From Candidatus Parcubacteria bacterium (GTDB taxonomy: Bacteria > Patescibacteriota > Patescibacteriia > CAIXNZ01), in contig JAPLYG010000001.1 in assembly GCA_026395685.1 (NCBI GenBank), forward strand, positions 7,862-71,861: a stretch of DNA of 64,000 nucleotides, given 5' to 3'. The notes under the pieces are model-generated. The model did not search any database. It was not told where the DNA came from and saw only the letters and a program-made list of their open reading frames with translations. Shown piece by piece: positions 25,030 through 63,269 of the stretch. The translations under genes and the position numbers were made by a program. Every line of letters starts with the position of its first letter. Position 1 is the stretch's first letter.

Positions 25030-25046
25030 ATAATAGGTGAAATTTT

Positions 25047-27793: not shown

Positions 27794-27797
27794 TACT

Positions 27798-29760: not shown

Positions 29761-29840
29761 TTATCAACAATGCCTCCTGGACTCAGCAAAGCCGTTGCGT
29801 CATCCCTTGTCTTAGGTAATAACTATTAACCTTAAGACCT

Positions 29841-31181: not shown

Positions 31182-31277
31182 GTAAAATAGAAAAACGCCC
31201 TGCTATTGCGGGCGTTCTTCTGTTTCTCTGAATTTGTACGTCCTTGAGGCACTCGGGTCTCTCGAACGCTTTCTTCT

Positions 31278-31352
31278 TGGTACCGCCTAGGGGAATCGAA
31301 CCCCTGTTACCAGGATGAAAACCTGGTGTCCTAACCACTAGACGAAGGCGGC
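31278..31352 (-). tRNA. tRNA-Glu(UUC), CCA encoded
   Basis: Minus strand reads 'GCCGCCTTCGTCTAGTGGTTAGGACACCAGGTTTTCATCCTGGTAACAGGGGTTCGATTCCCCTAGGCGGTACCA'. Cloverleaf with anticodon loop 'TTTTCAT'. Confidence 0.85.
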
Positions 31353-41073: not shown

Positions 41074-41134
41074 TATATCAGGATGAGAAAGGATAGTACT
41101 TAAACAAACGTTCCCAACCCAAAAGGAGGAAGAT

Positions 41135-41809
41135 ATGAAGAAGATGATGATGGCGGCTATGGTTGTTTGCCTGTTGGCTACTTCGGCTAAGGCTGGCCAG
41201 CTTCGGTTGGCAGGCTACTTCGATGTTATCCGGGAGCAGAGAACCATAACGCTTGATGGTTTCTCGCAGCTGTCCACGAAGTGGAGCGCCTGGGGATTCG
41301 TGGACTTTTACACAAATCCGGGAAACCAGAAGCAAGCAGCTGACAATGCTGATGTCCAGACGTTCTGTGGCAAAGGCACTCTGAGCTTCGTTCTCTGGCA
41401 GATTGATCAGAACAACTCTGTCAAACTGACTGGCGAGCTGATTGATTCTTCCTGGGCAAGCTCGCAGTTTCGGCCTGGTATTCAGTGGATGTTCGCCGAC
41501 GATCAGGGCTGGGTCAACTTCAAGATTTTGCCGGTCACGTTTGAACTGGTAACTCCTGAAGAAGAAATCCCGCAGGTCGGAGTGCTGGGCAGCGCCTGGA
41601 ATCTCAACGTGACTGACAAACTCTTCTGGGAAGGGTTCTGGGAAATGAGCTTTAGCTATGAGCAGCAGGATCAGCATTTCCCCTTTATTGCTGAGACTCA
41701 GCTTGGTTACCGGTTATTTGAAAAAGTTAATGTGCTGGTCGAGTACCGGTACAATAACTTTGTGGAAGATGACCACGGCCTCGGACTCGGGGCTGAGATC
41801 GTCTTCTAA
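41135..41809 (+). CDS. Secreted protein with predicted beta-strand-rich body and C-terminal Phe (outer-membrane-barrel-like signature). GC-rich relative to the flanks.
   Basis: Signal peptide 'MKKMMMAAMVVCLLATSAKA'. Alternating hydrophobic pattern. C-terminus 'GLGAEIVF'. Confidence 0.4.
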   Translation: MKKMMMAAMVVCLLATSAKAGQLRLAGYFDVIREQRTITLDGFSQLSTKWSAWGFVDFYTNPGNQKQAADNADVQTFCGKGTLSFVLWQIDQNNSVKLTGELIDSSWASSQFRPGIQWMFADDQGWVNFKILPVTFELVTPEEEIPQVGVLGSAWNLNVTDKLFWEGFWEMSFSYEQQDQHFPFIAETQLGYRLFEKVNVLVEYRYNNFVEDDHGLGLGAEIVF

Positions 41810-41858
41810 CGCAAGGGGAACAGACTTTCTGAAAGTCTGCTCCCCACCTAAATTCAAA

Positions 41859-41887
41859 TCCCGCCCTTAAGTGGACGGGATTTTTTA
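41859..41887 (+). terminator. Rho-independent terminator
   Basis: 'TCCCGCCCTTAAGTGGACGGGA' followed by 'TTTTTT'. Preceded by a second hairpin 'GGGGAACAGACTTTCTGAAAGTCTGCTCCCC' at 41815-41845. Confidence 0.7.
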
Positions 41888-42051
41888 AATGGGTTTATAG
41901 GTAATCGGTTTCGATATTCGTTTCGTTTATCGGAAATCGTTATTGGTAACAAATTCCGTATAACGCATAACGTAACGTTAAACGATACCGAATAACGAAA
42001 AACAAAAAAGAAATCCCTTGGTGGGGATTCCTTTTTTTATATTATTCAATT

Positions 42052-43464
42052 TTATTGCACTGTTAACACCAAATCATTGGAATAAACTCCGCAAGCTCCG
42101 CCCAGATATTCGCAGACTCGGAAATGATAAGTACCTGCGCTCAATCCCTGCCAAACATCGCTTTTAGCGGCGGAGCTGGAAAGATAATGATAATCATCAC
42201 CGGGATAAATCGGATTTATATGTTCAGCTTTAACAATTTTAAAACCTTGCCCGGAGGTAAAACTGGCTGTCCAGTTTAAACTTACGCTATTGCCGTAAAC
42301 TACCGCTGAAGCCGAGATGCTTTTATCGGCAGTTGAAGTTGTTGCTGCTTTGATAATTACTATTACATCATTGGAATAAACTCCGCAGGACCCGCCTAAA
42401 TATTCACAGACACGGAAATGCCAGGTGCCAACTGCTAAGTCAGACCATAAATCTATATTTGCTGACGGGCTGGATAAATAGTGGTATTCATCGCCGGGAT
42501 ATACTGGATTTACATGTTCGGCTTTGACGATCTTAAACCCGCTGGGAGAAGAAATATTTGTAGTCCATTTTATTTTTATGCCGTCAGTAACTGTTTCTGA
42601 CATTGCAGTAATGCTTTTTGTGCCGGTGTTTATTCCGTCTTCGACTATAAATGCCATGTTATCACTGTAGATTCCGCATTTGCCAGCCTGATACTCGCAG
42701 ACGCGGAAATAATAGGTGCCTTTGAATAGTCCTTCCCAAGTATCACTGCGAGCTGAAGGATCTGATAAATAATGATATTCATTGCCAGGATAAACCGGGT
42801 CTGGCTGGTTAGCCCAGACAACTTTAAACCCCTGGTCAGCGCTAATATTGGTGGTTGTCCATTTCAAGTTAACAGTATTGGTGGAAATAGATCCGGTTAA
42901 AGTAATTTTGCTGAGCTGGGAGTCGGTCGGATCTGGCTGGGTTGAAATTAATTTATCCTGATTAATGGAATAAGTCGCAGGGATAGCGGTTAATTCAGGA
43001 TTTTCTAAGGGTTCGCCGATTTTATAATTTATAAAAAATGGATCTGGCACATCATCAATTTTTTTAGACCAATCTGCACCCCATAAATTTTTTGCCAAAG
43101 ATTCGCTGGTTACCCATTTTAAAGTTCCTTCCTTATCAACATAGTAAACTTTGGGATCGGTGGTAATTTTTACGAGTTTAACGCCGGGCTTGTAGGTAAC
43201 ATTGCCGCCAATCGGAATTTCACCCAATAATTCATTACTGATTGCGATTACAGTATCAAAAGTGATAAACCAGGTTTTGTAAGTTTTTTCTGTGGGGAAA
43301 ACATAACGTTTGCCATCTGCGCCATAGTAATAAATACTATCGCTGGAGCCTCTAATCAAAGTTCCGGGGACTAAAGAGGAGGAGATGGTGGCTGAAGCTG
43401 TCAGAGGCAATAACGTTAAGACAAAAAGTCCTATTAGCGCCCCCACTAAAAATTTCTTCAACAT
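42052..43464 (-). CDS. Secreted protein with three tandem ~95-aa Cys-containing repeat domains
   Basis: Signal peptide 'MLKKFLVGALIGLFVLTLLPLTASA'. The repeat 'GFK(I/V)V...PVYPG(D/N)EYHYLS.PSA..D.W..L..GT(Y/W)(Y/H)FRVCEY..G.CG(V/I)YSN' occurs three times. Confidence 0.5.
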   Translation of the reverse strand: MLKKFLVGALIGLFVLTLLPLTASATISSSLVPGTLIRGSSDSIYYYGADGKRYVFPTEKTYKTWFITFDTVIAISNELLGEIPIGGNVTYKPGVKLVKITTDPKVYYVDKEGTLKWVTSESLAKNLWGADWSKKIDDVPDPFFINYKIGEPLENPELTAIPATYSINQDKLISTQPDPTDSQLSKITLTGSISTNTVNLKWTTTNISADQGFKVVWANQPDPVYPGNEYHYLSDPSARSDTWEGLFKGTYYFRVCEYQAGKCGIYSDNMAFIVEDGINTGTKSITAMSETVTDGIKIKWTTNISSPSGFKIVKAEHVNPVYPGDEYHYLSSPSANIDLWSDLAVGTWHFRVCEYLGGSCGVYSNDVIVIIKAATTSTADKSISASAVVYGNSVSLNWTASFTSGQGFKIVKAEHINPIYPGDDYHYLSSSAAKSDVWQGLSAGTYHFRVCEYLGGACGVYSNDLVLTVQ

Positions 43465-43784
43465 AAATTTAGGGTTATTAGTTAGGTTTATACTTTTAGT
43501 TTAGCAGATAAAGTTGGGTTTAGGCAAAACAAATTGTTAATCGTCAATCGGTATCGAAAATCGTTACGTTTATCGTTAATCGTTTGACGAGACGTAATGG
43601 AAAACGAAGCTGAAAAACGTATAACGAGAATGTTTGACAAATATCCCCAAAATGTTAAGTTTAAAGCAAATAAGAAATTGTCTAGGGGGACAGTTTTTTA
43701 TTTTTTAGAGATAAAGGTCTTTGAAAAAAAAGAGTCTTAAGGTATAACAAGGTTAACGATTACGCAAAGAAAGGGAGATGCCAG

Positions 43785-46700
43785 ATGTCTATGTTCTATC
43801 GCATCTATCGTCGGCCGCTACTCTCAACAGCCAGGACTGAAGAATTACAGCAAGTTCTGGCAGAAGTGGTGCCGGAAATTTCTGGGCTGGAAACTGAAAA
43901 AGTATTCTGCCTGGAAACAAAAAGGGAACTGACTGACGAGGAAATGGATCGGCTCAGGTGGCTCTTAGGCGGAGCTGACAGAGCCAAATGTCTGTCAGAC
44001 AGAACTTTTTTCCAAGATCACAGCAATGTGATAGAAATTGGTCCGCGGCTGCATTTTGAAACAGCTAATTCAACCAATGCTGTTTCCATTTGCCAGTCCT
44101 GTGAACTACCTGTGATCAGGCTGGAAGAAGCCAGACGTTACAAATTCATAAGCACTCAAACCTTGGGCAATGGCAAGATCGATCTGATTCTGCCGTTGTT
44201 GCACGACAAAATGACAGAGTGTCCGTATCCCAATCAGCTGACAACTTTTGTCACTGACAAAAAGCCGGAGCCGGTAAAGTATATTCCGGTAATGGAACAG
44301 GGAATGGATGCTTTGGTCAAAGCCAATGCTGAATATGGCACTGGCATGGACAAGGCGGATTTGCAGTACTATTTGTATCTCTTCACTGAAGTTGCCAAAC
44401 GCAATCCCACTGATGTTGAATGGTGCGATCTGGGCAACTGTAATTCTGAACATTCGCGACATCATGTCTTCCGCGCCAAGCTGATTATCGACGGACAGGC
44501 AATGCCCTTCACGCTGATGGATATTATCAAAAGCACGCTGACCAATCTCAGCAACTCTATTATTGCTTTTGATGATAATGCCTCGGCGATTAAAGGTGTG
44601 CCAGTTGGTTTCCTCATTCCTGAAAGACCTGGTTTACCTTCGCCAGTGCGTATGGCCGAACTTTTACTCCATTACGTGCTGACCTGCGAAACGCACAATC
44701 ACCCCTGCTTATGGGCAGCATATCCCGGAGCAGGAACGGGTGGCGGTGGCCGCAGACGCGATAATCAGGGTTTGGGCAGAGGCGGCTTAATTGCTGCCTG
44801 TTCAGCTGGATTTTTTGGCGGCAATCTCAATATTCCGGGCTATCCCCTGGAATGGGAAGATCCAAACTTTGCCTATGATCCGCTGTGCGAAAGCCCGCTG
44901 AAATTTTTCCGCAAAGCTGTTAATGGCGCTTTTGATGACGGCAATCAGTGTGGCGAGCCAGTCATTCTGACTTTCTTCGAGAGCTTTGGCTTGCGTATCG
45001 GTGCCGAACGCTGGGAGTACATCAAGCCGATCATGTTTACCGGTGGCTTTGGCTTCCTTGATGATCGCCATGTTAAAAAACACGAACCTGTTCCTGGCTG
45101 GCTGATTGTCCGAATCGGCGGCAAGGCCCATGAAGTTGGTTTTGGCGGCGGTGCTGCTTCCAGCTTAATGGGTGGTCAGAACATTGCAGCCCTTGATTTC
45201 AAATCAGTGCAGCGCGCTGATGGGGAAATGGCTCGCAAAACCGACCAGGTTATCCGCACTTGCGTCATGAAGGGTGATGATAATCCGATTGAAACGATTC
45301 ATGACCAAGGCGCTGGCGGACCTGGTAATGTGCTTAAAGAAATCATGGCTCCGGCTGGCGGTAGGATTGATATTCGCAACATCATCCTGGGCGATAAAAC
45401 CATGTCACCGGTGGCGATCTGGGTTTCCGAGTTCCAGGAAAATATGGCGATGTTAATCAAGCCAGAGCGCTGGGAAGAATTCAAGGCCATCTGCGACCGG
45501 GAAAAAGTCCCCTGCGCCGTGGTGGGTACGATCACTGGCGACGGCAAAGTCGTGGTTATTGATTCTCAGAACAATACCACTCTCTTTGATCTCAGTCTCC
45601 AGCAGATTTTCGGTGAATATCCTCTGAAAACTTATGAGGATACGCGCCGCAAACTAGAACTTCAGCCGCTTAATTTACCCGAAGATCTGTCAGTGGCTCA
45701 AGCTCTGGAAAAAACTTTCAAGCTGTTACAAGTTGGTTCGCAGGAATGGGCAGTTCACGTGGTTGACCGCAGTGTTACACCGCATGTGGTGCAGCAGCAG
45801 TGTGTCGGCCCCTGGCAATTGCCGATCAACAAATATTCGGTGATTGCGCCCAGCCCCTTCAGTCATACTGGCATGACCAATTCAGTAGGCACTAAACCCA
45901 TCATCGGCTTGATTTCACCGCAAGCCAGCGCCAGAATGTCTGCTGCTGAAGCTTTGTTAAGGCTGATGTTTGTTCCGGTCAGCAGTCGAGATGAAATCAA
46001 AGCATCCATAAACTGGATGCTGGCAGCCAAAGTCCCGGGCGGGATTGCCTGGCTGTACGATGCTGCTGTGGCTTTGCGCGATTTCATGAATAGCATCGGC
46101 ATGGATGCTGATGGCGGCAAAGATTCTTTATCAATGGCTACTAATGCCGGCGGAGAAAGAGTCAAATCGCCCAGCACAGTAGTAGTCAGCACCTATGCTG
46201 CTTGTACGGATTATCGCCAGAGATTGCAGCCTTACCTCAAGAATCCTGGCCAAACCAAACTGTTATTTGTTGATTTGGCTAATGGCAAAACCCGCTTAGG
46301 CGCGAGCGCCTTAGCTCAAGTCTGTGGCCAAGTCGGCAATGACTGTCCTGATGTTGAGAATGTTGATTTAGTCAATCAGGCTTTTGATAGCGTCCAGAAA
46401 TTGCTGGTCGCTGACGGCTTGATTGTCTCTGGCCAGCTGCGCAGTCGTAATGGTCTGATCTCGTCGTTGTGTGAAACAGCCTTTGCCGGCAACTGCGGAC
46501 TGTCAGTTAACATTCAACATCCGACAGCTTCGGCTAAAGAGGTACTGTTTTGCGAAGAGCTGGGTTTTGTCCTGGAATATCTGCCGGAAAACGAAGACGA
46601 CTTGTTGGCAGCGTTTGCCGAAGCCGGTCTTTCGAAGCATATCCAACAGATCGGAGTAACCACTACGGATAAGCAAATCATTATTCGTTTTAATGGGGAA

Positions 46701-47684
46701 CCGATCTTCAATGAACCGAGTGATCTCTGGCTACAAAAATGGCGGGAAACATCTTTCCGGATGAAAGCCTTGCGTTCAGTCAAAGCAGTCGTGGCTCAAG
46801 AAAGAGCCAATATTGCCAAAGGCAACGGCCTGGAATTTTCTCTCAGCTTTAATCCGGATTTAATTACTCCGGTGAAGACTGATTTTCCCGGCAAACCGAA
46901 AGTGGCCATTATCCGCGATGAAGGCACTAACAGCCAAGAAGAAATGAAAGTCGCGTTTTACTTGGCTGGCTTTGAACCCTATGATGTCACCATCACTGAT
47001 CTGGCCAGCGGAAAAGTCAGTTTGCGCGATTTTCGCGGCGTCGCTTTCCCAGGCGGATTCAGTTATAAAGATGTCCTGGGTTCAGCTGTTGGCTGGGCCG
47101 GAGTAATCAAGTTTAATCCGGTTCTTGTCAAAGAATTTTTAGCCTTTTTTCAACGGACAGATACTTTCAGCGTGGGCATCTGTAATGGCGATCAGGTAGA
47201 AATCTGGCTGGGAGTGCTTTATCCCGAGCTTGATGAATTGTCGCAGCCCAGGATGTACTTCAACTTGAGTGAATCTTTTGAATCGCGATTTGTCAGAGTG
47301 AGCATCTTGGATTCTCCAGCAATCATGTTGAAGGGTATGGCTGGATCAATTCTGGGAATCCACGTAGCTCATGGCGAAGGTCGTTTTTACTTCCCGGATG
47401 ACCAAATCTATCGTAGTATCCTATCCAAAGGTTTGGCGCCGGTAAGGTACATTGATCCGAGCGATCAACCGACTGAGGATTATCCCTTCAATCCCAATGG
47501 ATCTCCTGCGGGTATTGCGGCTTTGTGTTCTGCTGACGGCAGGCATCTTGCTATTATGCCGCATCCAGAACGTACAGTCCTAGTCAGGCAGTGGCCTTAT
47601 TTGCCCTACGGGACAAATTGGGAAAACTCGCCCTGGCTGAAAATGTTCCAGAACGCCTATCAGTGGTGTATGGAACAGAAGTAA
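43785..47684 (+). CDS. purL: Phosphoribosylformylglycinamidine synthase, single-chain large form (PurL/FGAM synthase)
   Basis: 1299-aa protein. AIRS-like domains, and a C-terminal class-I glutamine amidotransferase with catalytic 'GICNGDQ' and 'MPHPER'. Confidence 0.9.
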   Translation: MSMFYRIYRRPLLSTARTEELQQVLAEVVPEISGLETEKVFCLETKRELTDEEMDRLRWLLGGADRAKCLSDRTFFQDHSNVIEIGPRLHFETANSTNAVSICQSCELPVIRLEEARRYKFISTQTLGNGKIDLILPLLHDKMTECPYPNQLTTFVTDKKPEPVKYIPVMEQGMDALVKANAEYGTGMDKADLQYYLYLFTEVAKRNPTDVEWCDLGNCNSEHSRHHVFRAKLIIDGQAMPFTLMDIIKSTLTNLSNSIIAFDDNASAIKGVPVGFLIPERPGLPSPVRMAELLLHYVLTCETHNHPCLWAAYPGAGTGGGGRRRDNQGLGRGGLIAACSAGFFGGNLNIPGYPLEWEDPNFAYDPLCESPLKFFRKAVNGAFDDGNQCGEPVILTFFESFGLRIGAERWEYIKPIMFTGGFGFLDDRHVKKHEPVPGWLIVRIGGKAHEVGFGGGAASSLMGGQNIAALDFKSVQRADGEMARKTDQVIRTCVMKGDDNPIETIHDQGAGGPGNVLKEIMAPAGGRIDIRNIILGDKTMSPVAIWVSEFQENMAMLIKPERWEEFKAICDREKVPCAVVGTITGDGKVVVIDSQNNTTLFDLSLQQIFGEYPLKTYEDTRRKLELQPLNLPEDLSVAQALEKTFKLLQVGSQEWAVHVVDRSVTPHVVQQQCVGPWQLPINKYSVIAPSPFSHTGMTNSVGTKPIIGLISPQASARMSAAEALLRLMFVPVSSRDEIKASINWMLAAKVPGGIAWLYDAAVALRDFMNSIGMDADGGKDSLSMATNAGGERVKSPSTVVVSTYAACTDYRQRLQPYLKNPGQTKLLFVDLANGKTRLGASALAQVCGQVGNDCPDVENVDLVNQAFDSVQKLLVADGLIVSGQLRSRNGLISSLCETAFAGNCGLSVNIQHPTASAKEVLFCEELGFVLEYLPENEDDLLAAFAEAGLSKHIQQIGVTTTDKQIIIRFNGEPIFNEPSDLWLQKWRETSFRMKALRSVKAVVAQERANIAKGNGLEFSLSFNPDLITPVKTDFPGKPKVAIIRDEGTNSQEEMKVAFYLAGFEPYDVTITDLASGKVSLRDFRGVAFPGGFSYKDVLGSAVGWAGVIKFNPVLVKEFLAFFQRTDTFSVGICNGDQVEIWLGVLYPELDELSQPRMYFNLSESFESRFVRVSILDSPAIMLKGMAGSILGIHVAHGEGRFYFPDDQIYRSILSKGLAPVRYIDPSDQPTEDYPFNPNGSPAGIAALCSADGRHLAIMPHPERTVLVRQWPYLPYGTNWENSPWLKMFQNAYQWCMEQK

Positions 47685-47691
47685 TCCAAAC

Positions 47692-47724
47692 GCCCCGTTG
47701 TCGCAAGACGCGGGGCTTTTTTTA
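47692..47724 (+). terminator. Rho-independent terminator after purL
   Basis: 'GCCCCGTTGTCGCAAGACGCGGGGC' followed by 'TTTTTTT'. Confidence 0.8.
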
Positions 47725-47924
47725 ATTGGTGAGTAGTGTGTTGGTTAGGAAGCTAGTAGGTGGAGGTTTCATGGGTTAGGTGTTGAATAAATACTTTACC
47801 TTAACACTCTGCACTTACTAGCATCTTTACCTTTGCACTTAACCGTATGTTTGACAATTTTCAACATTTTTAATATGGTAAATACGAATTGGTTACAAGT
47901 TTGTACTTTAACAAGGAGAATATT

Positions 47925-49043
47925 ATGGAAGAACAAAAGGGAATGACGTATCAGGGAACCGGCGTAAACTACGATGACATGGATCCATTTAAAAGAGAGG
48001 CGCAACAAGCCGGACTGAAAACAGCCGGTAACATCAGCCGTCTTAATATGACGGAATTTGCTCCGAGCCGGGGCGAGAGCGCGTATCTGGTTGATTGCGG
48101 GAATCATTTTTTGGCGCAGGTCGTGGAAGGCTTGGGTACCAAGAATATTGTGGCCGAAGCCATGCAACAGCTAACCGGTGAATTGCATTTTGATTTAATT
48201 GCCCAGTGCTGCATGGCCATGATCGTCAATGACCTGATTACTGTCGGCGCCTTGCCCATTTCCGCGGCCATGTATTTGGCAGTGGGTGATTCAGCCTGGT
48301 TCAAAGACGAAGCGCGCGCCAAGAATCTGATTGACGGCTGGATGCATGCCTGCAATAAGTCTGGCTGTACCTGGGGTGGTGGGGAAACACCCACACTCAA
48401 AGGCATTATCAATCCAAATACAATCGATCTGAGTGGCGCGGCCATGGGCATCATTAGGAATAAACAGCATTTGATTACTGGCGAGAAGATCAAGCATGGC
48501 GATGTCATCATCGTTTTTGCCAGTTCCGGAATTCATGCCAATGGTCTGACTCTGGCCAGACGGATCGCTGAAAAGTTGTCCCAAGGCTACTTAACTCCAA
48601 TTGATTATATTGGCACGACATATGGCCGAGCCTTGCTGGATCCGACCGTGATCTATGTTCCTATCATCGAAGATTGTCAGTATTGGAATGTGAACGTACA
48701 CTACGCAGTCAATATCACAGGCCATGGTTGGCGCAAGCTGATGCGTAGTCAGGAACCTTTTATTTATGTCATTGAAACAATTCCTGATCCTCAGCCGGTT
48801 TTCCAGATCATGCAAAAGCATGGTCCGGTGGACGACGAAGAAGCCTATGGCAACCTGAATATGGGCGGTGGCTTTGCCATCTTTGTGTCAGAAAAGGATG
48901 TGCCTCTGGTCGTTGATATTTCCAAGGCTACCAACATACCGATTGTCGGCTACGGACATATTGAAAAAAGTGGTGAGGACAAGAAAGTCATCATTGAACC
49001 CAAAGGCATTACCTTTGATAGTAAAAGTCTGCAGGTTCGCTGA
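47925..49043 (+). CDS. purM: PurM-family protein (AIR synthetase / AIR-synthase-related)
   Basis: RBS 'AAGGAGAA' before the ATG at 47925. 'VEGLGTKN', 'MIVNDLITVGALPI', 'SGCTWGGGETPTLKG' and 'GDVIIVFASSGIHANGLTL' align with PurM motifs. Confidence 0.7.
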   Translation: MEEQKGMTYQGTGVNYDDMDPFKREAQQAGLKTAGNISRLNMTEFAPSRGESAYLVDCGNHFLAQVVEGLGTKNIVAEAMQQLTGELHFDLIAQCCMAMIVNDLITVGALPISAAMYLAVGDSAWFKDEARAKNLIDGWMHACNKSGCTWGGGETPTLKGIINPNTIDLSGAAMGIIRNKQHLITGEKIKHGDVIIVFASSGIHANGLTLARRIAEKLSQGYLTPIDYIGTTYGRALLDPTVIYVPIIEDCQYWNVNVHYAVNITGHGWRKLMRSQEPFIYVIETIPDPQPVFQIMQKHGPVDDEEAYGNLNMGGGFAIFVSEKDVPLVVDISKATNIPIVGYGHIEKSGEDKKVIIEPKGITFDSKSLQVR

Positions 49044-49283
49044 TTTGATTTTTAAAGGGATTCGTGGAAACGCGGGTCCCTTTTTCTAATTGTCAAAAAG
49101 GTTAGGGTTAGGATGTTGATAGGTGTAAAGTGCTTGGGTTAGGTGACCTTGCCCTGCCTGCCAATAGGAAGTAGACAGGCTAAACACTCCACTCTTAATA
49201 TCGTCTTTACCATTACACCTAACTCTTGTTTGACAAAATATAGATTTTATTATAATTTCAAGCTAGAAAAGAAGGGTCAAAAC

Positions 49284-49808
49284 ATGGAGATTAATGAAAG
49301 TCTAGCTAAGCAGATTCAGGCAAGAACTCGTGAATTTCAGAAAAAACGTCTCTGGAAGAAATCCACGGCCATTGCAAAGACATTTGGCAGAAAAGATGTC
49401 CGTGAAGCCAGCGATCATACGACTGTTACGTATGATTTTAATCAGAATCGATGCTGTGGTTTTTTCAGGGTCTACCTGTCAAATTTTGTTTACGGCGGAT
49501 ACTATGTGAATGTAGAAATCGCGGGCAAAACGGTTTTGTCCGCCCAGGAAACATTCGCTGATTCTGAAGACGCCAAACATTTTCCTTTCCAGATCTGCAA
49601 GTATGGGAGCAGTTTGCTCTTTGTTAAGATTTACATCCCGGGCGATTGGGAAAAACTTATGGATATGAAGTTTATGCGCAAGGAAGTAAAAGCCCTGGAA
49701 GCTGCAGAACAGGGCAGGCTTAAAGAACATGACGAAACAGCGGAAAAATCAAGACCCCTTACCAGGGAGGAACAAGAATTAGCCGCGAATTTCGGCATCA
49801 AAGGCTAA
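49284..49808 (+). CDS. Hypothetical protein (start at ATG 49284 preferred over the extended ORF start 49143)
   Basis: A repeat element and a TTGACA/TATAAT promoter occupy 49150-49260. No known motif. Confidence 0.4.
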   Translation: MEINESLAKQIQARTREFQKKRLWKKSTAIAKTFGRKDVREASDHTTVTYDFNQNRCCGFFRVYLSNFVYGGYYVNVEIAGKTVLSAQETFADSEDAKHFPFQICKYGSSLLFVKIYIPGDWEKLMDMKFMRKEVKALEAAEQGRLKEHDETAEKSRPLTREEQELAANFGIKG

Positions 49809-49815
49809 AAATTAT

Positions 49816-49844
49816 GCCCGCATCTTCGGATGCGGGTTTTTTTA
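49816..49844 (+). terminator. Rho-independent terminator
   Basis: 'GCCCGCATCTTCGGATGCGGG' followed by 'TTTTTTT'. Confidence 0.8.
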
Positions 49845-50054
49845 TTTGTTGTTAGTGAATCGGTATCGATAATCGTTTCGTTTATCGTTAATCGTTTGAC
49901 GTGACGTATATAGTACAACGTTCAACGTAACCTGCCTGTCGGCAGACAGGCTAAACACTCCACTCTTACCAGCATCATTACCATTACACCTTGCCTTTAA
50001 ATAAAAATACCCTCGTGTTCCGAAGGTATTTTTAAGTAATTTGGCTGTCTGAGT

Positions 50055-50372
50055 TTACCATGACAATACGCTAAGAATTAATTTTTTCCAGCTGGGTTTT
50101 CTTTTATAGCGTTTAAATTTGCGTTCTGCTTTTTCAATAAGCTGGAAATAGTAAGTAGAACTCATTGTCCCCAAAACACAGCCCAGAGCATATGCCAGAA
50201 TAATACTCCAATTAGTAATGTCTGAAATGATGGCTTCAATAATATAGTACCAGACAATAATTTCAATCAGAGTAATTGCGCCGCTGGCCCAGACTTGGCT
50301 TTTATTGACCACCTTGGTCCAGATAGTGCAAATTATCATTTCAGCCAGGCCGATTAGAAAAAAGGAAATCAT
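50055..50372 (-). CDS. Small membrane protein (hypothetical)
   Basis: Three hydrophobic helices. Basic C-terminus 'KFKRYKRKPSWKK'. Confidence 0.35.
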   Translation of the reverse strand: MISFFLIGLAEMIICTIWTKVVNKSQVWASGAITLIEIIVWYYIIEAIISDITNWSIILAYALGCVLGTMSSTYYFQLIEKAERKFKRYKRKPSWKKLILSVLSW

Positions 50373-50622: not shown

Positions 50623-53600
50623 TTAGCGCGGTATATTTACATTGCCTTTTAGCCTGATTCTAGCAATAACGCCTCTGCCATTATTTTTTTCATCTTTTTC
50701 TAAAATTAATTCCCAATTTTTGCGGGCTTCAGGCGTTTCAGCATTAAAAAAGAGGGTTGGTATTTTGCTGTTGGGCACAAAAATTTTATACCAGGATACT
50801 TTGACTTCAGCTCCTGCATCTAAAATAGATATATCCTCAATTGGGAAAGAATTAAGGTTAAGCCTGTTTAAAAGGATCAGCGCATTTTCATTAAAATATT
50901 CCCCATTCCTAACGATTTGCCTGTTGGGAGGAAGTTGTCCGGCCAGAATTCTTTTGACATAATTATTATCGCCATAGTCAATTTTCTCGTTGGCCCCAAT
51001 AAGATTTTTCATAAAGGTTTGATCATTCAGCAGGTTTTTAGTAAATGCTTCAACGTCAGAATCAACCAGAGTTAGAATCTCCAGGACTACAGGAGTAAAT
51101 TCATTCAGCTTTGCTTCTAGAATCTGCTTAACCTCTTGAGGATGATTTTTGACATGATGCTGTAAAAATTTGCCTGTCAAAGGAAAATAAATTTGGGCAA
51201 ATTCTTTGGCTTCTTCAAAATTTTCAGCTTCTCCTAACTTTTCAAATACTTCACTATTAAGAAAATGATTTATATGGTTCTCAAGCTCATTTTTAAAGAT
51301 GCCTGCCAACTCAGTTAAAAATGTAATTTCTTTGGCAGAAAGCGATTTGTCCCTGATAACTTCTGCCAATTGGCCTTCTCTTTTCTTGAGATTTTTCAGC
51401 TTGTTCCTGATTATTTCCAGCTGTTTTTCTAGCGGAAGATTGCGCAGCCACGGACTGGCAATATTGAAATTTCTATTGGCTAAGGCAATTATAAATTCCT
51501 GATCTTTTCCCAAATCTGTACCTTTTGAAATCAAATCTTTGATCTCATCTTGTTTTTTTAATATTTCATCAATTTGCCTCAGGTCTTTTAGTGAGTTTAA
51601 TTCAGTAAAGATCAGCCTTTTTTGTTTTGTCGCTTCCACTAAGGGCAAGCCAAAATTAGGATTTTTTTCCACCAATTTCTCAAAAAATTGTAAGTTGTCA
51701 GGATTTTGCAGCCAGCTGGAATTGTAATTTAGGAGTTTTTCTAGCTGGCTTGTTTTGTCAAAATTTTCCTTTATAATTTCACGCAGTTCTGCCTGGCTGT
51801 TAGCATCGTCAAACAGCATATTGATATAAACAATTGCAGAATCAAAGTCTTTTTTTGCCATTTTTCTGACTTCGGCAGCATCTTCAAGAATAATTCCTTT
51901 TACGTTTTCCATAATTAACCTGGAATTGGTGCCACGTCCGGCTAACGCTTCCTTGAGAAACCTTTTTTGATCTTCCGGCGTTAAATATTTTAGATATTTC
52001 AACGCCAATGAGAAGCTAAGGTCTGCCAATTTGTTCATTATTTCAAGGTCGTCACAAATCTTTGGATTGCTTTTTAGAAAAGATTCAAGATCAAGCATCT
52101 CCGGGTGGATAAGGTATTCTTTAACAGATAAAATTATTTTCTTCTGGATTTCTTTATCTTTAGTTATTCCCAGGGCTAAGGCAAAATGATGATAAGCAAT
52201 TTCTCCAATGATATTCCTATTACTTAAATACTCTGGCTTAATTTCTAAAATTTTCTTTATATCACTTTCAGACAAATCTTGTATTTTTTTTATAATAATG
52301 TCCTCTAAGTTTGTAGCGCCGATTTGTGCTGGTAAGTCTTTCAGATAGGGAATTAAAAGAGAAAAATTATATCTTCTTACAGCTTGCAATAGTTGCTGAT
52401 CAGCAAGCAGTTCTTTGTTTCTGGCAATAAGGTCATTAAAAATTTCAATAGAAGCGGTAGAAGCAGTGCCGAATTTAATGTAGGTTATAACAACTTCCCT
52501 TTTTTCCTCATCAGTCAACTGCGGCAGCAACAGATCTTTATAGTAACTTATTTTTTCCTTAAGTGATGTCTTAATTTGGGGGACATCCAGCAAGTCAGGC
52601 CTTGCTTTTAAAAATTGTTCGATTTTATAAACATAATTATCTCCTCCGCTGACTGGTACGCCGTGATGAAATAATATTTTTTCCATAATAGCAATCTGGG
52701 TTTCTTCATCAACCTTGTCTGCAAATTTAAAAAATATTTCCGGGTTTTTTTCAGCAATTAATCGGCCGAAAGCTTCATTCTTTAAAAAATTCGGATATTG
52801 ACTTAAAATTTCGTCTAACTTATTGATTCTTTCCGGACTTTTAAAATTTATATTGGCAGCTTTTTCAAGATAATGTAATATCCTTTGCTTTTTTTGGTTT
52901 TCATCAGATAAAAGACTGGGATCAACTTCTATAATAGCTTTCAAGGCAAAAAAGTTTTTATCAATAAGCTCTGTCAGAAATCCCTGCTCTGCTCCCAATT
53001 TTGTTACTTTTGCTAAAGTCGTGAGAATTCTTGGAAGCGCATACTCTGATTTACAATTTAGAGCTAAAAATTTTAATAATTCTTTACCGCTCACGGTATA
53101 TTGCCGGGATATCAAGGCGTTAATAATGTCTACTTTGCCGGTCAGCAATTTTTTTATTTCCTCGCCATCTGTCAGCTCACGACAAATTGACAGAATAATA
53201 TGATCATAGGCTATTCTGGCAAAAGTATGCTTTTTTGTCGTGTCTTTTCTTTTTTTACCTATTCTATATACTTCCCATTCTTCCCAGTCATTATTGGAGC
53301 TCCTTTTATACTGAAGAAGTAAAATCAGTATTTTAGGCTTGGAAAGGTTATGTGTCTTGGAAATTTGTTTAATCAGCTTGTCTAAATTATCCGTATCAAA
53401 CTGATCAACGCCTGGTTTGCTGACTTTGTTTACCAGTTCTTCGTATTGTTCTCCGACCATTTTTCTCAGCAGTTTATCTTGTTTTTCCTGATCCATCTTT
53501 TCCCCCAGAATTTCTGTTCTAAAGCGAAAAATTCGATGAACAAAGCCCGGATCCGAAGTTATTGTATCTGAAAGTTTTACGAAAAGATCATTTAATTTAC

Positions 53601-56247
53601 TTTTGTGCACCCCAATTAATTTTATTACCTGTTCGTCTTGGCTATTGGCATCAAGAAAATAAAACAGACTTATAATAAACTCACGATCGTGTGATTTTTC
53701 AGCGACAGAAATCGCCTGCTCAAGGTTATTAATCTTTTCCTGCTTAAATTTTGTGGTTAGGCTAAAAAGCTGTAAAATTTCAGGTAGATTTAATTTATCT
53801 TCTTCAGGGTTATTTTTACTTAAATTGAAATAGTAACTGCTTAGTTTTTTTGGCGCATATCGCAAGACAATGGGTAAATCAAGCTTGGGCGTGGTTGGCA
53901 ACAGGCTCAAAACCTCAAGTAACTTATCCTGATTGGTTTTTATATCCTGAGTCAGCTTTTTTATATAATTCTCAATAGTTTCTTTAATTTCCGCTCCGAT
54001 TTTTATTTGGCTGAATAATTTTGCCTTTTCTTCAGTTGCAATATCCAGGATTAGCAAATTTTCCGCATAATTGGTAAAGTTTGCCAGCACTTTTTTGCGC
54101 ATAAATTCCTGCACCTCGGGATTTTTATGCTTTAGCAAGCTTATGGGAAAGTTTAATTTTGTGGTTTCCGGCAGAGAAGTTAAAATATCCAAAACCAGGG
54201 GCGCAAAGGCGGCTAATTTTTCAGAATTTCGTTCTTTAAAAAATTCTTTATAAATATTTTGGGCAACCTCTACGCTGACATTGCCCTTGAGTTTAAGCAG
54301 GCAATATTGCAGATTTTTGGGGTCAAGGCCTTTATTCAAAAAGCCAATTGGATTTTGGGCCACGTATTCCATGTATCTTTGATCCAGTCCGCCTTCTTTT
54401 TCTGCTGATTTTTTCACTTCTTTTATTACCTGAGTCGGAGTAATTTTTTCTTTGATTTGAAAAACAGTTATGTTGTTTAAGTCTGCGGCTAATTTTTCCA
54501 AATTAACTTTTTTGTCGATTTTTGCCAGGAAATATTTCAAGCGTCCCAGTTTGGTAAGGGCACGTTGGCGATGGGATTCTCCCAGTTTTTCTTCGATTTG
54601 ATTTTGGGTGTCCTTATCAAGTGTCGGGATGGCGCTTTTTTCCAGGACGCTGATATTATTTTTTGCCAAGACATTATAAAATTCCGAAGTAAAAGGCTGA
54701 TTGGTGGAAAAACGTAAAAGTCCGCCTGTTTTGGCCATGCGTACCATGTCAACAAGCATATTTTTTACATCATTTTCTGATGACGGCCCCTTAAGATTAT
54801 CAAAAGAAGAGCATTCTACCAGATCAATGCAATTATCGGCAATCGGCGTATGCTTCATATCCGCCAGAATATCATGGCCTTGATTTTTTATGTCTTGAGG
54901 CAAGGTTTCGCGACTGTTGGCCAGCATGTCAAGGCTGTAATCTGCTGAAATAATATGTTCCGGCATTTTATAATCAGGAAAGCGTTTGGCAATATCATAA
55001 TGGGCTCTTAATTCTTCATGAGGTCCGGAAGCAACAGAAAGAATTACCTGGGGAAGATTCTTTATTAATCCTTTTTTATATTTGCTGATTAAATCTAAAA
55101 CAGCTGCCCGATGTTCCAAATATTGGGGAAAATAATCCATATATTTGACATACAGCTTGGTAATTTCATTGGTCCATTTCCCTGTTTTGGTAGCATTGGA
55201 AATCAGCCAGAATTTTTGCTGCAGTTCATTGGGGACAATTGATTTTTCAGTGGTTTTAATTCTTTTAAAATTCAATAATTCAGGATTGGGATCTGCTATT
55301 TCTTTAAATTTAATGCCCTCCGCATCTAAAAAGGGGAAAATATTATGAAGCGGTATCATTTCAGCCGGGGTGTCATTTAAGACTTCGACAATTTTGCTTT
55401 GCTCTCGGGAGATCGCTCCGGAAAAAAATTCATTCAATTCTCGCTTGCCCAGTTCCTCAAATTTTTGCAGTTCCTTAAAGGTTGAAGCCTGTTTCAATTG
55501 CTTGAAGCGTAAATCTTCAATCTCAAAATCAGCAATGTTCAAGTCGGGATATTCTTTGCGCAAAATTTTCCAGACTGTTTCTTTTACTTCGTCGGCTAAT
55601 ATTTTTTTTATAAAATAAGCAATAATGTCAGATTTCTTTTCAGCCAAGACGCTGTCTTTGGGCAACCCTTTCTCCAATTTATATTGTTCTTCTAGGGATT
55701 TATTTTTTTCCAGGTTTTCTTTGATTTTTTCAAAGGTATAAAGAATCGCGCCGGTAATTTTCGGGCTGAGGTTTATATTATTGGGCAAACCATTAATTTT
55801 AAGCGCCACTCCCATCGGCATGATGGAAAATTCAGAAGCTGATTTTAAGTAGGTTTCCATAATCGGCAGATTGCCAAAAGGCAAGCGAGCTTCAATGACT
55901 GTTTTTTGCAGTCTTTCCTTTGAGGTAAGCTCTTCGCTTGACACTTCTTGTCCCAGATTAATTTCTTCGGATGTTTGTAATTTTTCTTTAATCAGAGATT
56001 TCATCTCCGCAGTCAGGTCAAGCTGCAGCATAACAGCCCAAAAGCGGCGTCTGATTTCCAGGCCGGAATTGCTAATCTTTTTTATATATTCGACAAAATT
56101 GGCAGTTTCTGTTTGTTTGTTTTCAGTGCTAAGTAAAATTAAAATTTCTTGGGCAATTGAATCTTTAAATTTTTCAGTGCCAAGTAGGTCTTTAAGCAGT
56201 TGTTGCGGAGATTTTTTAAGCTGTTCTTTCAGAGAAAAATTTAACAT
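50623..56247 (-). CDS. Giant (1874 aa) largely alpha-helical hypothetical protein with an embedded class-I SAM-MTase-like segment
   Basis: Uninterrupted 5.6-kb ORF. 'VILSVASGPHEE' and 'ADMKHTPIADNCIDLVECSSFDNL' resemble MTase motifs I and II/III. No TM segments. Terminator hairpin 'GGCAGCTTAGTGAGCCGCC' lies downstream at 50587-50620. Confidence 0.55.
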   Translation of the reverse strand: MLNFSLKEQLKKSPQQLLKDLLGTEKFKDSIAQEILILLSTENKQTETANFVEYIKKISNSGLEIRRRFWAVMLQLDLTAEMKSLIKEKLQTSEEINLGQEVSSEELTSKERLQKTVIEARLPFGNLPIMETYLKSASEFSIMPMGVALKINGLPNNINLSPKITGAILYTFEKIKENLEKNKSLEEQYKLEKGLPKDSVLAEKKSDIIAYFIKKILADEVKETVWKILRKEYPDLNIADFEIEDLRFKQLKQASTFKELQKFEELGKRELNEFFSGAISREQSKIVEVLNDTPAEMIPLHNIFPFLDAEGIKFKEIADPNPELLNFKRIKTTEKSIVPNELQQKFWLISNATKTGKWTNEITKLYVKYMDYFPQYLEHRAAVLDLISKYKKGLIKNLPQVILSVASGPHEELRAHYDIAKRFPDYKMPEHIISADYSLDMLANSRETLPQDIKNQGHDILADMKHTPIADNCIDLVECSSFDNLKGPSSENDVKNMLVDMVRMAKTGGLLRFSTNQPFTSEFYNVLAKNNISVLEKSAIPTLDKDTQNQIEEKLGESHRQRALTKLGRLKYFLAKIDKKVNLEKLAADLNNITVFQIKEKITPTQVIKEVKKSAEKEGGLDQRYMEYVAQNPIGFLNKGLDPKNLQYCLLKLKGNVSVEVAQNIYKEFFKERNSEKLAAFAPLVLDILTSLPETTKLNFPISLLKHKNPEVQEFMRKKVLANFTNYAENLLILDIATEEKAKLFSQIKIGAEIKETIENYIKKLTQDIKTNQDKLLEVLSLLPTTPKLDLPIVLRYAPKKLSSYYFNLSKNNPEEDKLNLPEILQLFSLTTKFKQEKINNLEQAISVAEKSHDREFIISLFYFLDANSQDEQVIKLIGVHKSKLNDLFVKLSDTITSDPGFVHRIFRFRTEILGEKMDQEKQDKLLRKMVGEQYEELVNKVSKPGVDQFDTDNLDKLIKQISKTHNLSKPKILILLLQYKRSSNNDWEEWEVYRIGKKRKDTTKKHTFARIAYDHIILSICRELTDGEEIKKLLTGKVDIINALISRQYTVSGKELLKFLALNCKSEYALPRILTTLAKVTKLGAEQGFLTELIDKNFFALKAIIEVDPSLLSDENQKKQRILHYLEKAANINFKSPERINKLDEILSQYPNFLKNEAFGRLIAEKNPEIFFKFADKVDEETQIAIMEKILFHHGVPVSGGDNYVYKIEQFLKARPDLLDVPQIKTSLKEKISYYKDLLLPQLTDEEKREVVITYIKFGTASTASIEIFNDLIARNKELLADQQLLQAVRRYNFSLLIPYLKDLPAQIGATNLEDIIIKKIQDLSESDIKKILEIKPEYLSNRNIIGEIAYHHFALALGITKDKEIQKKIILSVKEYLIHPEMLDLESFLKSNPKICDDLEIMNKLADLSFSLALKYLKYLTPEDQKRFLKEALAGRGTNSRLIMENVKGIILEDAAEVRKMAKKDFDSAIVYINMLFDDANSQAELREIIKENFDKTSQLEKLLNYNSSWLQNPDNLQFFEKLVEKNPNFGLPLVEATKQKRLIFTELNSLKDLRQIDEILKKQDEIKDLISKGTDLGKDQEFIIALANRNFNIASPWLRNLPLEKQLEIIRNKLKNLKKREGQLAEVIRDKSLSAKEITFLTELAGIFKNELENHINHFLNSEVFEKLGEAENFEEAKEFAQIYFPLTGKFLQHHVKNHPQEVKQILEAKLNEFTPVVLEILTLVDSDVEAFTKNLLNDQTFMKNLIGANEKIDYGDNNYVKRILAGQLPPNRQIVRNGEYFNENALILLNRLNLNSFPIEDISILDAGAEVKVSWYKIFVPNSKIPTLFFNAETPEARKNWELILEKDEKNNGRGVIARIRLKGNVNIPR

Positions 56248-56315: not shown

Positions 56316-56360
56316 TAATAAAAGGGCGGTGCTTTTGCCCGCCCCTTGGTTGTCTTTTTT
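56316..56360. terminator. Bidirectional terminator between the giant gene start and the PEPCK stop
   Basis: 'GGGCGGTGCTTTTGCCCGCCC' with an A-run before and a T-run after. Confidence 0.6.
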
Positions 56361-63229: not shown

Positions 63230-63240
63230 CGCACAACCAA

Positions 63241-63269
63241 CCCCCGTCTGAATAAGGCGGGGGTTTTTA
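63241..63269 (+). terminator. Rho-independent terminator
   Basis: 'CCCCCGTCTGAATAAGGCGGGGG' followed by 'TTTTT'. Confidence 0.8.

Follow-up and report, generated by a model that had tools for sequence, protein, structure and literature searches.

We analysed a 64-kb stretch of DNA (hereafter, the window) from a contig of 77,129 bp, the proteins of which are recorded under the NCBI metagenome-assembled genome ‘Candidatus Parcubacteria bacterium’ (locus tags NTZ49_), focusing on a GC-rich segment at positions 41080-50050 that carries purL and purM, two genes of the purine pathway. The database record agrees with the candidate phyla radiation (CPR) background assigned by a previous reading of the letters without database searches (hereafter, the sequence-only reading); ftsH, tsaD, tsaE and a T2SSE ATPase gene are found in the window. 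The GC content of the segment is 45.7%, compared to 36.0% in the remainder of the window, or 35.1% if the phosphoenolpyruvate carboxykinase (PEPCK) and SPFH genes are set aside. Within 41-49 kb, 1-kb windows reach up to 46-51% GC, and in the first 41 kb they have 29-41%. The sequence-only reading had described a GC-richer segment in a background of ~30% GC; the shift is real (45.7% vs. 35-36%), but it is bounded by genes, and the background ranges from 29% to 41% instead of being uniform. The GC steps coincide with gene boundaries, and there are at least 8 alternations.

Five genes stand out: p224 (41135-41809, plus strand; 51.0% GC, and 63% GC at third codon positions, GC3), purL (43785-47684, plus; 49.0%, GC3 50%), purM (47925-49043, plus; 48.3%, GC3 53%), the PEPCK gene pckG (56359-58152, minus; 48.9%, GC3 51%) and the SPFH gene (61988-63229, plus; 53.1%, GC3 65%), the last two sharing the shift as had been read. 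Compared to a reference set of the 41 other genes of the window (GC 35.9 ± 4.3, GC3 35.0 ± 5.5), these genes have z = 2.9-4.0 for GC and z = 2.8-5.5 for GC3. The genes p470 (41.3% GC) and orf221 (42%), which lie inside the segment, do not show a strong shift. In the GC-rich set, the share of C in two-fold pyrimidine codons is 0.40 vs. 0.22, the share of G in two-fold purine codons is 0.44 vs. 0.24, and Gly, Ala, Arg and Pro together make up 26% of the residues, compared to 20% in backbone genes and 15% in accessory genes. The elevation is present at all codon positions, including the first and second (GC1, GC2), and in all synonymous codon classes. The window thus consists of three compositional tiers (accessory genes, 29-33% GC; backbone genes, 36-41%; the GC-rich set, 48-53%), and the conserved ftsH, tsaD, T2SSE ATPase and csp genes have GC3 of 33-38%. 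Opposite-strand open reading frames (ORFs), which had been thought to appear in this segment only, are enriched there but not limited to it: 6 of the ~17 opposite-strand or overlapping ORFs of at least 100 aa fall within 41-49 kb, and further ones sit in a histidine kinase gene, ftsH, a giant gene downstream of the segment, and the PEPCK and SPFH genes. Such antisense ORFs are the expected by-product of stop-poor, GC-rich DNA.

The product of purL (1299 aa) matches TIGR01735, the single-chain formylglycinamidine ribonucleotide (FGAM) synthetase, with 1297.2 bits against a cut-off of 1123.05 (residues 11-1294 of 1299 aligned), as the sequence-only reading had proposed. The Pfam domains FGAR-AT_N, FGAR-AT_linker, AIRS_C, FGAR-AT_PurM_N-like and GATase_5 all score above their gathering thresholds and are arranged as an N-terminal domain, a linker, a duplicated PurM-like synthetase domain and a C-terminal glutaminase. 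PurL also aligns over its full length to solved PurL/FGAMS structures among the PDB matches, the best being 9n9w (1369-residue chain, 1008 bits), with Salmonella PurL (1T3T) at 743 bits. Its predicted role is the conversion of formylglycinamide ribonucleotide to FGAM. The gene is followed by its own terminator and preceded by a conserved promoter-like element (43634-43668, plus), in which TTGACA is followed by an extended -10 (TGTTAAGTT) and which would function as a promoter.

The product of purM (372 aa) was only partly borne out as PurM. It aligns end to end with TIGR00878 (residues 20-360 vs. 2-331 of 332), carries both AIRS domains above gathering (PF00586, AIRS, 49.2 bits; PF02769, AIRS_C, 32.7 bits) and has PurM structures as all 20 of 20 PDB matches (best 131 bits), but its score of 192.8 bits lies below the TIGR00878 cut-off of 236.35, and the NCBI name is ‘AIR synthase related protein’. 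We place the start 12 codons inside the ORF that begins at 47889, from a ribosome-binding site and an ATG; the resulting protein is 100% identical to P0121 / MCX6739643.1 over 372 aa. A promoter-like site lies at 47851-47879 and a terminator at 49054-49083. The protein would carry out the step that follows PurL, from FGAM to aminoimidazole ribonucleotide (AIR). Finally, pckG encodes a GTP-dependent PEPCK (NF003253, 841.8 bits vs. a cut-off of 504; PEPCK_N, 277 bits; PEPCK_GTP, 512 bits) that presumably interconverts oxaloacetate and phosphoenolpyruvate. No purN was found anywhere in the window by tblastn, and no purF, purD, purE, purK, purC, purB or purH was recognised within its 64 kb by Pfam annotation of the ORFs. 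At gathering threshold, the Rfam matches in the window are tRNAs and a LOOT RNA, all of them away from the pur genes; neither a riboswitch nor any other known RNA was found beside these genes.

We compared the window to the contigs from independent assemblies that encode the closest homologues of its proteins: G4 (L004, a JGI contig of 245 kb), G1 (NCBI assembly GCA_026395755.1, contigs L001 and L098), L100 and L101 from Logan, L102 from ENA, and two GTDB representatives, L009 and L010. The record of L009, a syntenic CPR relative, is labelled ‘uncultured Gammaproteobacteria’. The backbone order ftsH, trmB, p224, p470, (purD, purN), purL, purM, DUF5698, pckG, p167, csp, tRNA-Arg/His, xerC, rpsO recurs piecewise in at least 5 independent assemblies. 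G4 has ftsH, trmB, a 227-aa orthologue of p224, a 428-aa gene, a 567-aa orthologue of p470, purL, purM, DUF5698, pckG, a 177-aa gene and csp. In G1, contig L001 carries ftsH, trmB, six small genes, p473, a laminin-G gene, purN and the 5’ part of purL, and contig L098 carries the 3’ part of purL, an Hpt gene, purM, DUF5698, a 236-aa gene, pckG, a 180-aa gene, trmB and csp. The order is PNPase, NYN, rpsO, xerC, tRNAs, csp, three more genes, pckG, two more genes and DUF5698 in L100; csp, p165, pckG, purM and the 3’ end of purL in L101; and purD, purN, purL, purM, p166, csp and xerC in L102. L009 and L010 share ftsH, p470 and purM with the window, and L010 shares pckG as well.

The GC-richness recurs with the genes. 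In G1, G4, L100, L101 and L102, purL has 50-53%, purM 47-53% and pckG 51-52% GC, and their neighbours have 28-42%; purD (51%) and purN (48%) of L102 are GC-rich as well. The junctions ftsH/trmB/p224/p470/purL, purM/DUF5698/pckG and pckG/p167/csp/tRNA/xerC/rpsO are each reproduced among JGI, NCBI, ENA and Logan assemblies, and all junctions between GC-rich and AT-rich DNA in the window are found elsewhere except those that flank three window-specific inserts. The DUF5698 gene (50055-50372, minus; 37% GC; a small membrane protein with a weak Pfam match) is a backbone gene, orthologues of which adjoin purM in L004, L005, L098, L099 and L100, and rpsO lies at 63488-63781. We ruled out xerC and the tRNAs as the integration module of an island: xerC is 88% identical in L100 and 85% identical in L102, at the same backbone position. 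No integrase or tRNA adjoining 41-50 kb was seen, xerC at 60.4 kb being a backbone gene.

Comparison of the window, G1 and G4 shows that these genomes are roughly equidistant from one another, as judged from protein identities (window-G1, window-G4 and G1-G4, respectively): 74%, 76% and 68% for the FtsH N-terminus; 60%, 67% and 59% for p470; 86%, 83% and 82% for PurM; 81%, 69% and 73% for DUF5698; 84%, 74% and 78% for PEPCK; and 85%, 82% and 91% for Csp. TrmB is 76% identical between the window and G4; it was dropped as a yardstick of window-G1 divergence, the two trmB-like genes of G1 being only 33-40% identical and of doubtful orthology. Synonymous sites are near saturation, with identical codons at 48-56% of conserved residues vs. 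37-45% expected by chance (for window-G1, 55-56% in the FtsH N-terminus and p470, and 49% in PEPCK). In their divergence among the three genomes, purM and pckG match the backbone genes and look as if they had been passed down from the ancestor that the three shared.

The purL gene behaves differently. PurL of the window is only 46-48% identical to that of G4, compared to 66-83% for the flanking proteins. The flanking DNA of the window and L004 aligns at 70-76% on both sides, upstream as far as ~43706; the homology is lost near 43706-43727, resumes at 47276 (76% by blastn) and runs on through purM. Accordingly delimited, with approximate boundaries, the putatively replaced tract (43728-47275, plus) consists of a leader of ~57 nt and purL codons 1 to ~1164, and the last ~135 codons (47276-47684, plus) form a native-like 3’ end that is closer to L004 and mainstream PurL than to the other members of the CPR clade. 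The upstream region is conserved: the promoter-like element precedes purL in the window and in L004 and purN-purL in L001, and the three-way intergenic alignment contains the invariant block TTGACAAATAT..CCAAAATG.TAA. The G4-type PurL is found in syntenic relatives, that of L102 being 81% identical to G4 and 47% to the window, and that of L009 56% identical to G4. The nearest relatives of the window PurL are P0001 (84%), P0002 on contig L002 (68%) and P0003 (64%), followed by proteins of a Patescibacteria MAG (metagenome-assembled genome; 57%), Parcubacteria (54%) and Moranbacteria (52%); identity to mainstream bacterial PurL is ~49%. In neighbour-joining trees with Kimura distances, from which L102 PurL was left out (it was placed by blastp only), bootstrap support is 100 for the window with P0001 and 100 for the window with P0001-3 and L002, and L004 and L009 fall outside this group. 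Resampling separates the two parts of the protein: residues 1-1160 are closer to the CPR clade (clade A) than to the G4 and mainstream proteins (group B) in 500 of 500 resamples, residues 1165-1299 are closer to group B in 500 of 500, and this C-terminal part is closer to G4 than to P0002 in 447 of 500. By these comparisons, purL is chimeric, with a body from the CPR clade and a native-like 3’ end.

Conversely, PurL of the window and G1 is far more similar than the backbones of these genomes allow, to judge from residues 1-754, which are 94.8% identical in amino acids and 91.2% in nucleotides, with identical codons at 80% of conserved residues vs. 41% expected at saturation. The last 297 residues are at the level of purM (84.6% and 79.6%, respectively). 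The G1 assembly GCA_026395755.1 breaks inside purL, L001 ending at codon 754 and L098 starting at about codon 1003; the break may reflect coexisting alleles in that population. The purN gene lies directly upstream of purL in G1, L002, L003 and L102 and is lacking there in the window and in G4. In L009, purL and purM are fused into a single ORF of 1652 aa (L009:6140-11098) with a host-like GC content of 40%, next to a purN of 52% GC.

Relatives of the PurM-like protein number in the thousands at ~58-63% identity, many of them with CPR names. In a survey of one genome per GTDB species with the PurM alignment as query, 589 relatives were confirmed. The best 80 of these 589 cover more than 15 CPR candidate phyla (among the groups represented are Falkow-, Blackburn-, Nomura-, Vogel-, Taylor-, Wildermuth-, Nealson-, Andersen-, Berkel-, Moran-, Staskawicz-, Levy-, Roizman-, Woese- and Doudnabacteria, Paceibacteria and Saccharibacteria), along with the non-CPR Vicinamibacterales, Syntrophaceae and Armatimonadota. 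Thus, the expectation in the sequence-only reading that de novo purine genes would be unusual in CPR does not hold: relatives of purM occur throughout these candidate phyla, often beside purL, purC, purN and purE. Among the 123 immediate neighbours of purM in 66 loci, the commonest Pfam families are PurL (8), PurC (4), PurN-type (4) and PurE (3), and from this company the purM-like gene is a gene of the purine pathway. The GC content of purM exceeds that of its flanks in all 74 of the 74 loci with enough flanking sequence (mean +6.8 points; +2-4 points in non-CPR genomes). It is often the top-GC gene of a CPR locus, for example in a Nomurabacterium (55.6% vs. 32.3%) and a Moranbacterium (54.8% vs. 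34.0%), and in such loci the GC island comprises this single gene and no other; there are also CPR loci in which purM and its surroundings differ by ~0 points.

The purM genes of Blackburn-, Nomura-, Vogel-, Taylor- and Moranbacteria are mutually 88-92% identical in amino acids and 83-88% in nucleotides, with identical codons at 62-74% vs. 41-46% expected, so that their synonymous sites are unsaturated. When the loci (10-21 kb) are aligned, the gene and a few tens of flanking bases match and nothing else does. These copies (L011:286-1386, L014:10001-11101, L020:611-1711, L023:6507-7607, L058:1-987 and L012:9977-11077) are islands of ~55-61% GC in flanks of 32-49%, measurable in 5 of the 6 loci. 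On this evidence of identity and alignment, purM has undergone single-gene horizontal transfer between these candidate phyla. Within the family of the window, L101 is the closest relative by PEPCK (89%) and Csp (92%), and its purM (L101:3104-4222) is markedly richer in GC (GC3 66%) and encodes a protein only 71% identical; the low identity of PurM beside that of PEPCK indicates that purM has been replaced within this family, too. A phage vector for purM was ruled out, there being no relative in 2.9 million IMG/VR contigs.

For pckG, the closest homologues of the protein form a small CPR set (89, 84, 83, 81, 79, 74, 70 and 68% identical) in which pckG is linked to purM on the same contigs, followed by a plateau of 62-65% in Margulisiibacteriota, Saganbacteria, Omnitrophota and Sedimentisphaerales. 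Because the CPR set sits above this non-CPR plateau, pckG is probably an older import from outside CPR that is now inherited vertically. Its GC content is 44-52% across all relatives and its GC3 51-57% in four lineages. We counted directional changes in purM and pckG at purely synonymous third positions. In pckG, 58 GC to AT changes are balanced by 53 AT to GC changes; decay to the backbone GC3 of 35-40% predicts a GC to AT share of 65-69%, which is rejected (p = 0.0002-0.007). By this count, pckG keeps its high GC3 in a stationary state, and the balance argues against simple amelioration of one old import as a sufficient explanation.

The lineage-specific pieces of the window are the SPFH block, orf221 with its repeats and an AT-rich gene for a protein of 1874 aa, all of which are genuinely recent insertions. 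They are also the only genes that are absent from the same site in the relatives; p224, purL, purM and pckG are present there (in L004, L001/L098, L100, L101 and L102). The giant gene (50623-56247, minus; 35.7% GC) lies between DUF5698 and pckG, at a site of variable content: L004 has no gene there, L098 has one of 236 aa, and L100 has a 240-aa gene and a T2SSE-like gene; the giant protein had no tblastn match in any fetched locus. The insertion downstream of purM (49173-49991, plus) is lacking between purM and DUF5698 in L004, L098, L005 and L099. It carries orf221 (probably 49284-49808), which has no homologue in any fetched locus, and a terminator (49816-49837), and two 48-nt direct repeats (family D4; 49173-49220 and 49944-49991; 90% identity) surround the ORF. 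The third insertion, of ~1.9 kb (61353-63308, plus), separates xerC from rpsO by 1975 bp, compared to ~245 bp in L100, and carries the SPFH gene and, upstream of it, a short ORF at either 61611-61991 (plus) or 61491-62009 (minus). The SPFH protein has a Band_7 match. It also matches phrog_11908 over its full length (1e-45) and nine IMG/VR viral contigs (L089-L097), among them contigs of 185, 207 and 379 kb, at 47-59% identity.

Taken together, these findings probably reflect a conserved Parcubacteria backbone in which the GC-rich pur genes have been repeatedly replaced by alleles from other CPR. GC-richness is a property of the exchanged class of metabolic genes and not the time stamp of one recent acquisition; in all the relatives examined, p224, purL, purM and pckG lie 10-17 GC points above their neighbours. 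Each of purL and purM is a module with a promoter-like site and a terminator of its own. In such a history, they would belong to a pool that moves among CPR lineages, and resident copies would be replaced in place through uptake of foreign DNA and homologous recombination in flanking or intragenic homology. The ancestral purL of the family would have been of the type seen in G4, L102 and L009. In the lineage of the window, G1 and P0001, ~3.5 kb, starting ~57 nt before the start codon of purL and ending at about codon 1164, would have been overwritten by an allele of the CPR clade, with one crossover in the conserved glutaminase end; purM and the 3’ end of purL would have remained native. The 5’ tract (2.3 kb) would then have been exchanged again, recently, between the lineages of the window and G1. 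Parsimony suggests that the window and G1 represent the invaded lineage. High GC could persist because a GC-richer pool supplies alleles again and again, because gene conversion tied to recombination is GC-biased, or because of selection. We do not favour translational selection as the cause of the high GC3, the rise of G-ending purine codons being as large as that of pyrimidine codons ending in C. The csp family is presumably highly expressed as a rule, and the GC3 of csp is 0.33, i.e., not elevated, which also counts against this cause.

Several observations weigh against this history. In purM, 60 GC to AT changes vs. 38 AT to GC changes fit slow amelioration (17 vs. 16 in the lineage of the window itself), so that the argument from maintained GC holds for pckG only. 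The support for CPR clade A of PurL is 62%, and that for L004 with the mainstream proteins is 23%. The evidence for a chimeric 3’ end comes from 135 residues within a conserved domain, L004 being preferred over P0002 in 447 of 500 resamples, and purL of G1 is split over two contigs, residues 755 to ~1002 missing. The direction of replacement, with the window and G1 and not G4, L102 and L009 as invaded, is parsimony over few, partly sampled relatives. The purL-purM fusion of L009, at a host-like GC of 40%, indicates that high GC is not required for function.

The sequence-only reading had proposed recent horizontal acquisition, which in its strongest form would have brought in the whole 41-50 kb block at once from a GC-richer donor outside CPR, with PEPCK and SPFH as further recent imports. 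The proposal is right insofar as the compositional shift marks genes with a history of transfer, the replacement of purL is relatively recent and so is SPFH; moreover, the shift affects all codon positions and classes, Gly, Ala, Arg and Pro are raised to 26% from 15-20% as for foreign DNA, and the next-closest relatives of pckG are non-CPR. The 9-kb segment is not, however, one recent block, because the same genes, GC-rich, are in the backbone of G4, G1, L100, L101, L102, L009 and L010. The 41% GC backbone gene p470 interrupts the block, its gene order and GC-richness are common to at least 5 related assemblies, purM and pckG are as diverged between G1 and G4 as backbone genes are, the closest homologues of PurL and PurM are all CPR, and neither an integrase nor a tRNA nor any other mobility gene was seen at the borders of 41-50 kb, xerC belonging to the conserved backbone. 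A single import is thus very improbable. The phylogeny suggested as a check places the donors of the PurL allele among other CPR, an outcome that had been named as speaking against acquisition, although the window protein does not fall with its sister at this locus. An assembly or binning chimera, in which an AT-rich CPR contig would have taken in reads from an organism of higher GC, had been offered as the alternative and might be read from the sharp GC transitions in a metagenome-assembled contig and from the break within purL in G1. It is excluded for all junctions common to another assembly, because independent assemblies (JGI, NCBI, ENA and Logan) reproduce them; the at least 8 gene-bounded GC alternations are not what a single junction would leave, and the intergenic promoter region 5’ of purL is orthologous in three assemblies, so that we regard a chimera as hardly credible at all.

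Purely vertical inheritance with gene-specific compositional constraint and without horizontal transfer, in which the conserved enzymes would withstand AT-biased drift in their amino acids and GC-rich codons would be selected through, e.g., expression level or mRNA properties, would account for the GC-richness of all purL, purM and pckG orthologues in close relatives, the balanced synonymous changes in pckG, the excess of purM over its flanks in 74 of 74 loci, non-CPR genomes (+2-4 points) included, and the raised GC1 and GC2. It does not accommodate PurL proteins that are chimeric and 47% vs. 95% identical in equally related genomes, the 71% identity of L101 PurM beside a PEPCK at 89%, or purM genes that are 88-92% identical across CPR candidate phyla with unsaturated synonymous sites. 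The shift also extends beyond C over U to G-ending purine codons, GC3 is 33-38% in ftsH, tsaD, the T2SSE ATPase gene and csp, which are conserved too, and purL-purM of L009 is at host GC; we therefore consider vertical inheritance unlikely as the sole explanation. Quite unlikely is the inverse possibility that the AT-rich DNA, with the giant gene, the defence island and genes for surface proteins, is acquired or fast-evolving and that the GC-rich segment is a native core with a composition of ~40-50% GC. The three compositional tiers are compatible with it, and the giant gene and the defence and mobile island at 12.5-31 kb are lineage-specific or mobile, but the housekeeping genes ftsH, tsaD, tsaE, T2SSE ATPase, xerC, csp and rpsO have 36-41% GC and GC3 of 33-43%. 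Since these genes lie well below purL, purM and pckG, the GC-rich set remains an outlier with respect to the core.

The p224 gene (NTZ49_00225, hypothetical protein; the identical sequence is on record as MCX6739640.1) has an orthologue in L004 that is 67-68% identical and also has 51% GC, and a 31% identical relative in L002; it has no Pfam, NCBIfam or PHROG match. The antisense ORF inside it (41078-41677, minus) is read as spurious because the plus frame has orthologues in L004, where it is conserved and called, and in L002. The protein has a signal-peptide-like hydrophobic N-terminal leader, predicted beta strands and a C-terminus ending in GAEIVF. These features recall outer-membrane beta-barrel proteins, which would be odd for a CPR bacterium, and the protein looks secreted and all-beta, with a final Phe; a single-sequence AlphaFold2 model was unusable, with a predicted local distance difference test (pLDDT) score of 30. 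A displaced purN was ruled out, BLASTP against three PurN proteins of relatives giving no similarity. The backbone gene p470 (42052-43464, minus; 41% GC) encodes a repeat-containing hypothetical protein without a family match, with orthologues in L001, L004, L009 and L010 (59-67% identity), and is always divergently upstream of the pur genes in the family of the window. Three internal repeats of 63 nt (family D2; 42073-42720), spaced by 291-294 nt, would imply a tandem protein repeat of ~97 aa.

A further repeat family, D1 (51-63 nt), has 3 copies in 64 kb compared to a chance expectation of 0.32, all on the plus strand and with 48 of 51 positions identical in the best pair: copy a (41891-41953) in the spacer between the convergent p224 and p470, copy b (43534-43596) just upstream of the purL promoter, and copy c (49846-49908) within the 49173-49991 insertion. 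Part of copy b recurs in L004, ahead of purL, and in L001, ahead of purN. D1 and D4 are confined to the GC-rich segment; they may bind proteins as arrays, be scars of recombination or represent small dispersed elements.

Elsewhere in the window, positions 12519-31352 form a long AT-rich stretch of mobile and defence genes, including a type IIG/MmeI-like methylase-restriction gene with a TaqI_C specificity gene, a SIR2-HerA pair, a DUF2779/Cas4-like nuclease, a methylase with a ParB N-terminus, a second methylase and a terminase-like ATPase. A large serine recombinase gene (29841-31181) adjoins tRNA-Glu (31278-31352) in this region. The LOOT RNA (Rfam RF03000; 25076-25203, minus; 80.9 bits vs. 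a gathering score of 46.4) also lies here, directly upstream of a 372-aa gene without a family match (23962-25080), with an overlap of 5 nt.

Horizontal transfer combined with in-situ gene displacement is a known type of event, the CPR setting being notable. The concept of in-situ xenologous displacement in mosaic operons reportedly goes back to Omelchenko, Koonin and colleagues in 2003. The case described here resembles it in that the neighbourhood and promoter are kept, PurL is swapped for a distant orthologue (47% vs. 66-83% in the flanks), and the displaced and displacing PurL belong to different clades (bootstrap 100; 62 and 23 at the deeper nodes). It differs in that the replacement in the window is partial and has left purL chimeric, its 3’ end being native, the allele that came in is from the same superphylum, and a later, very recent 5’ exchange with a second lineage is superimposed. 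We take Salmonella lgPurL (1T3T; TIGR01735) and E. coli PurM (1CLI; TIGR00878) to be the reference structures. PurL of the window shares the full domain architecture of lgPurL and scores above the equivalog cut-off, but belongs to a divergent CPR clade; the PurM-like protein shares both AIRS domains with PurM, and its homologues are often adjacent to purL, purN, purC, purE and purD, but it scores below the equivalog cut-off. Cyanophages carry purM, purL and purN as auxiliary metabolic genes. Both there and here, pur genes travel as small mobile units between genomes; unlike for the phage genes, no relative of the CPR purM-like gene was found in IMG/VR, and its context in the window is chromosomal and not a prophage.

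Under the model of compositionally deviant islands and their amelioration (Lawrence and Ochman 1997, as cited in PMC12455944), genes of foreign origin stand out in an AT-rich host by GC, GC3 and codon usage, as they do in the window. Unlike in such islands, no mobility module was seen at the GC-rich segment, the genes are present in relatives, the deviation is common to orthologues near synonymous saturation, pckG is not decaying, and the new DNA includes an AT-rich gene. Studies of CPR metabolism as shaped by horizontal transfer (Jaffe et al. 2020, PMC7304191; mSystems 2025, PMC12455944) describe patchy, sparse metabolic genes with trees that conflict with the species tree, and transfers among CPR and from other bacteria, with nucleotide-metabolism genes among the gains. 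The pur genes of the window fit this description; single-gene GC islands of purM and an in-situ purL chimera are not described there. The words ‘purine’ and ‘PEPCK’ are absent from both papers, and ‘purL’ is absent from PMC12455944, the only one of the two in which it was searched. Full-text literature searches found nothing on purL, purM or FGAM synthetase in CPR.

As a lead, the islands of purM across candidate phyla hold the greatest interest. As a tentative generalisation, in which we place limited confidence, CPR might share a GC-rich purine allele pool (purM, purL and perhaps purN and purD) that sweeps between candidate phyla as single-gene modules by homologous replacement, plausibly via DNA-uptake machinery, and keeps ~50-57% GC in hosts of 32-49% GC as replacement or GC-biased conversion outpaces amelioration. 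If so, the chimeric purL of the window would be one snapshot of these sweeps. A GC-rich patch in an AT-rich CPR genome is not to be taken as a chimera or a fresh import, because here the same genes are GC-rich throughout the family and the newest DNA of the window includes an AT-rich gene. To our knowledge, CPR are usually described as unable to make nucleotides. Given the conserved purL-purM locus, the purD-purN-purL-purM cluster of L102 and the widespread purM-like genes near other pur genes, CPR may have partial purine synthesis as a trait that recurs and can be exchanged, and that merits a place in metabolic reconstructions of these symbionts. If purM and purL truly circulate as single-gene alleles, they would provide a concrete case for recombination and gene flow in uncultured organisms.

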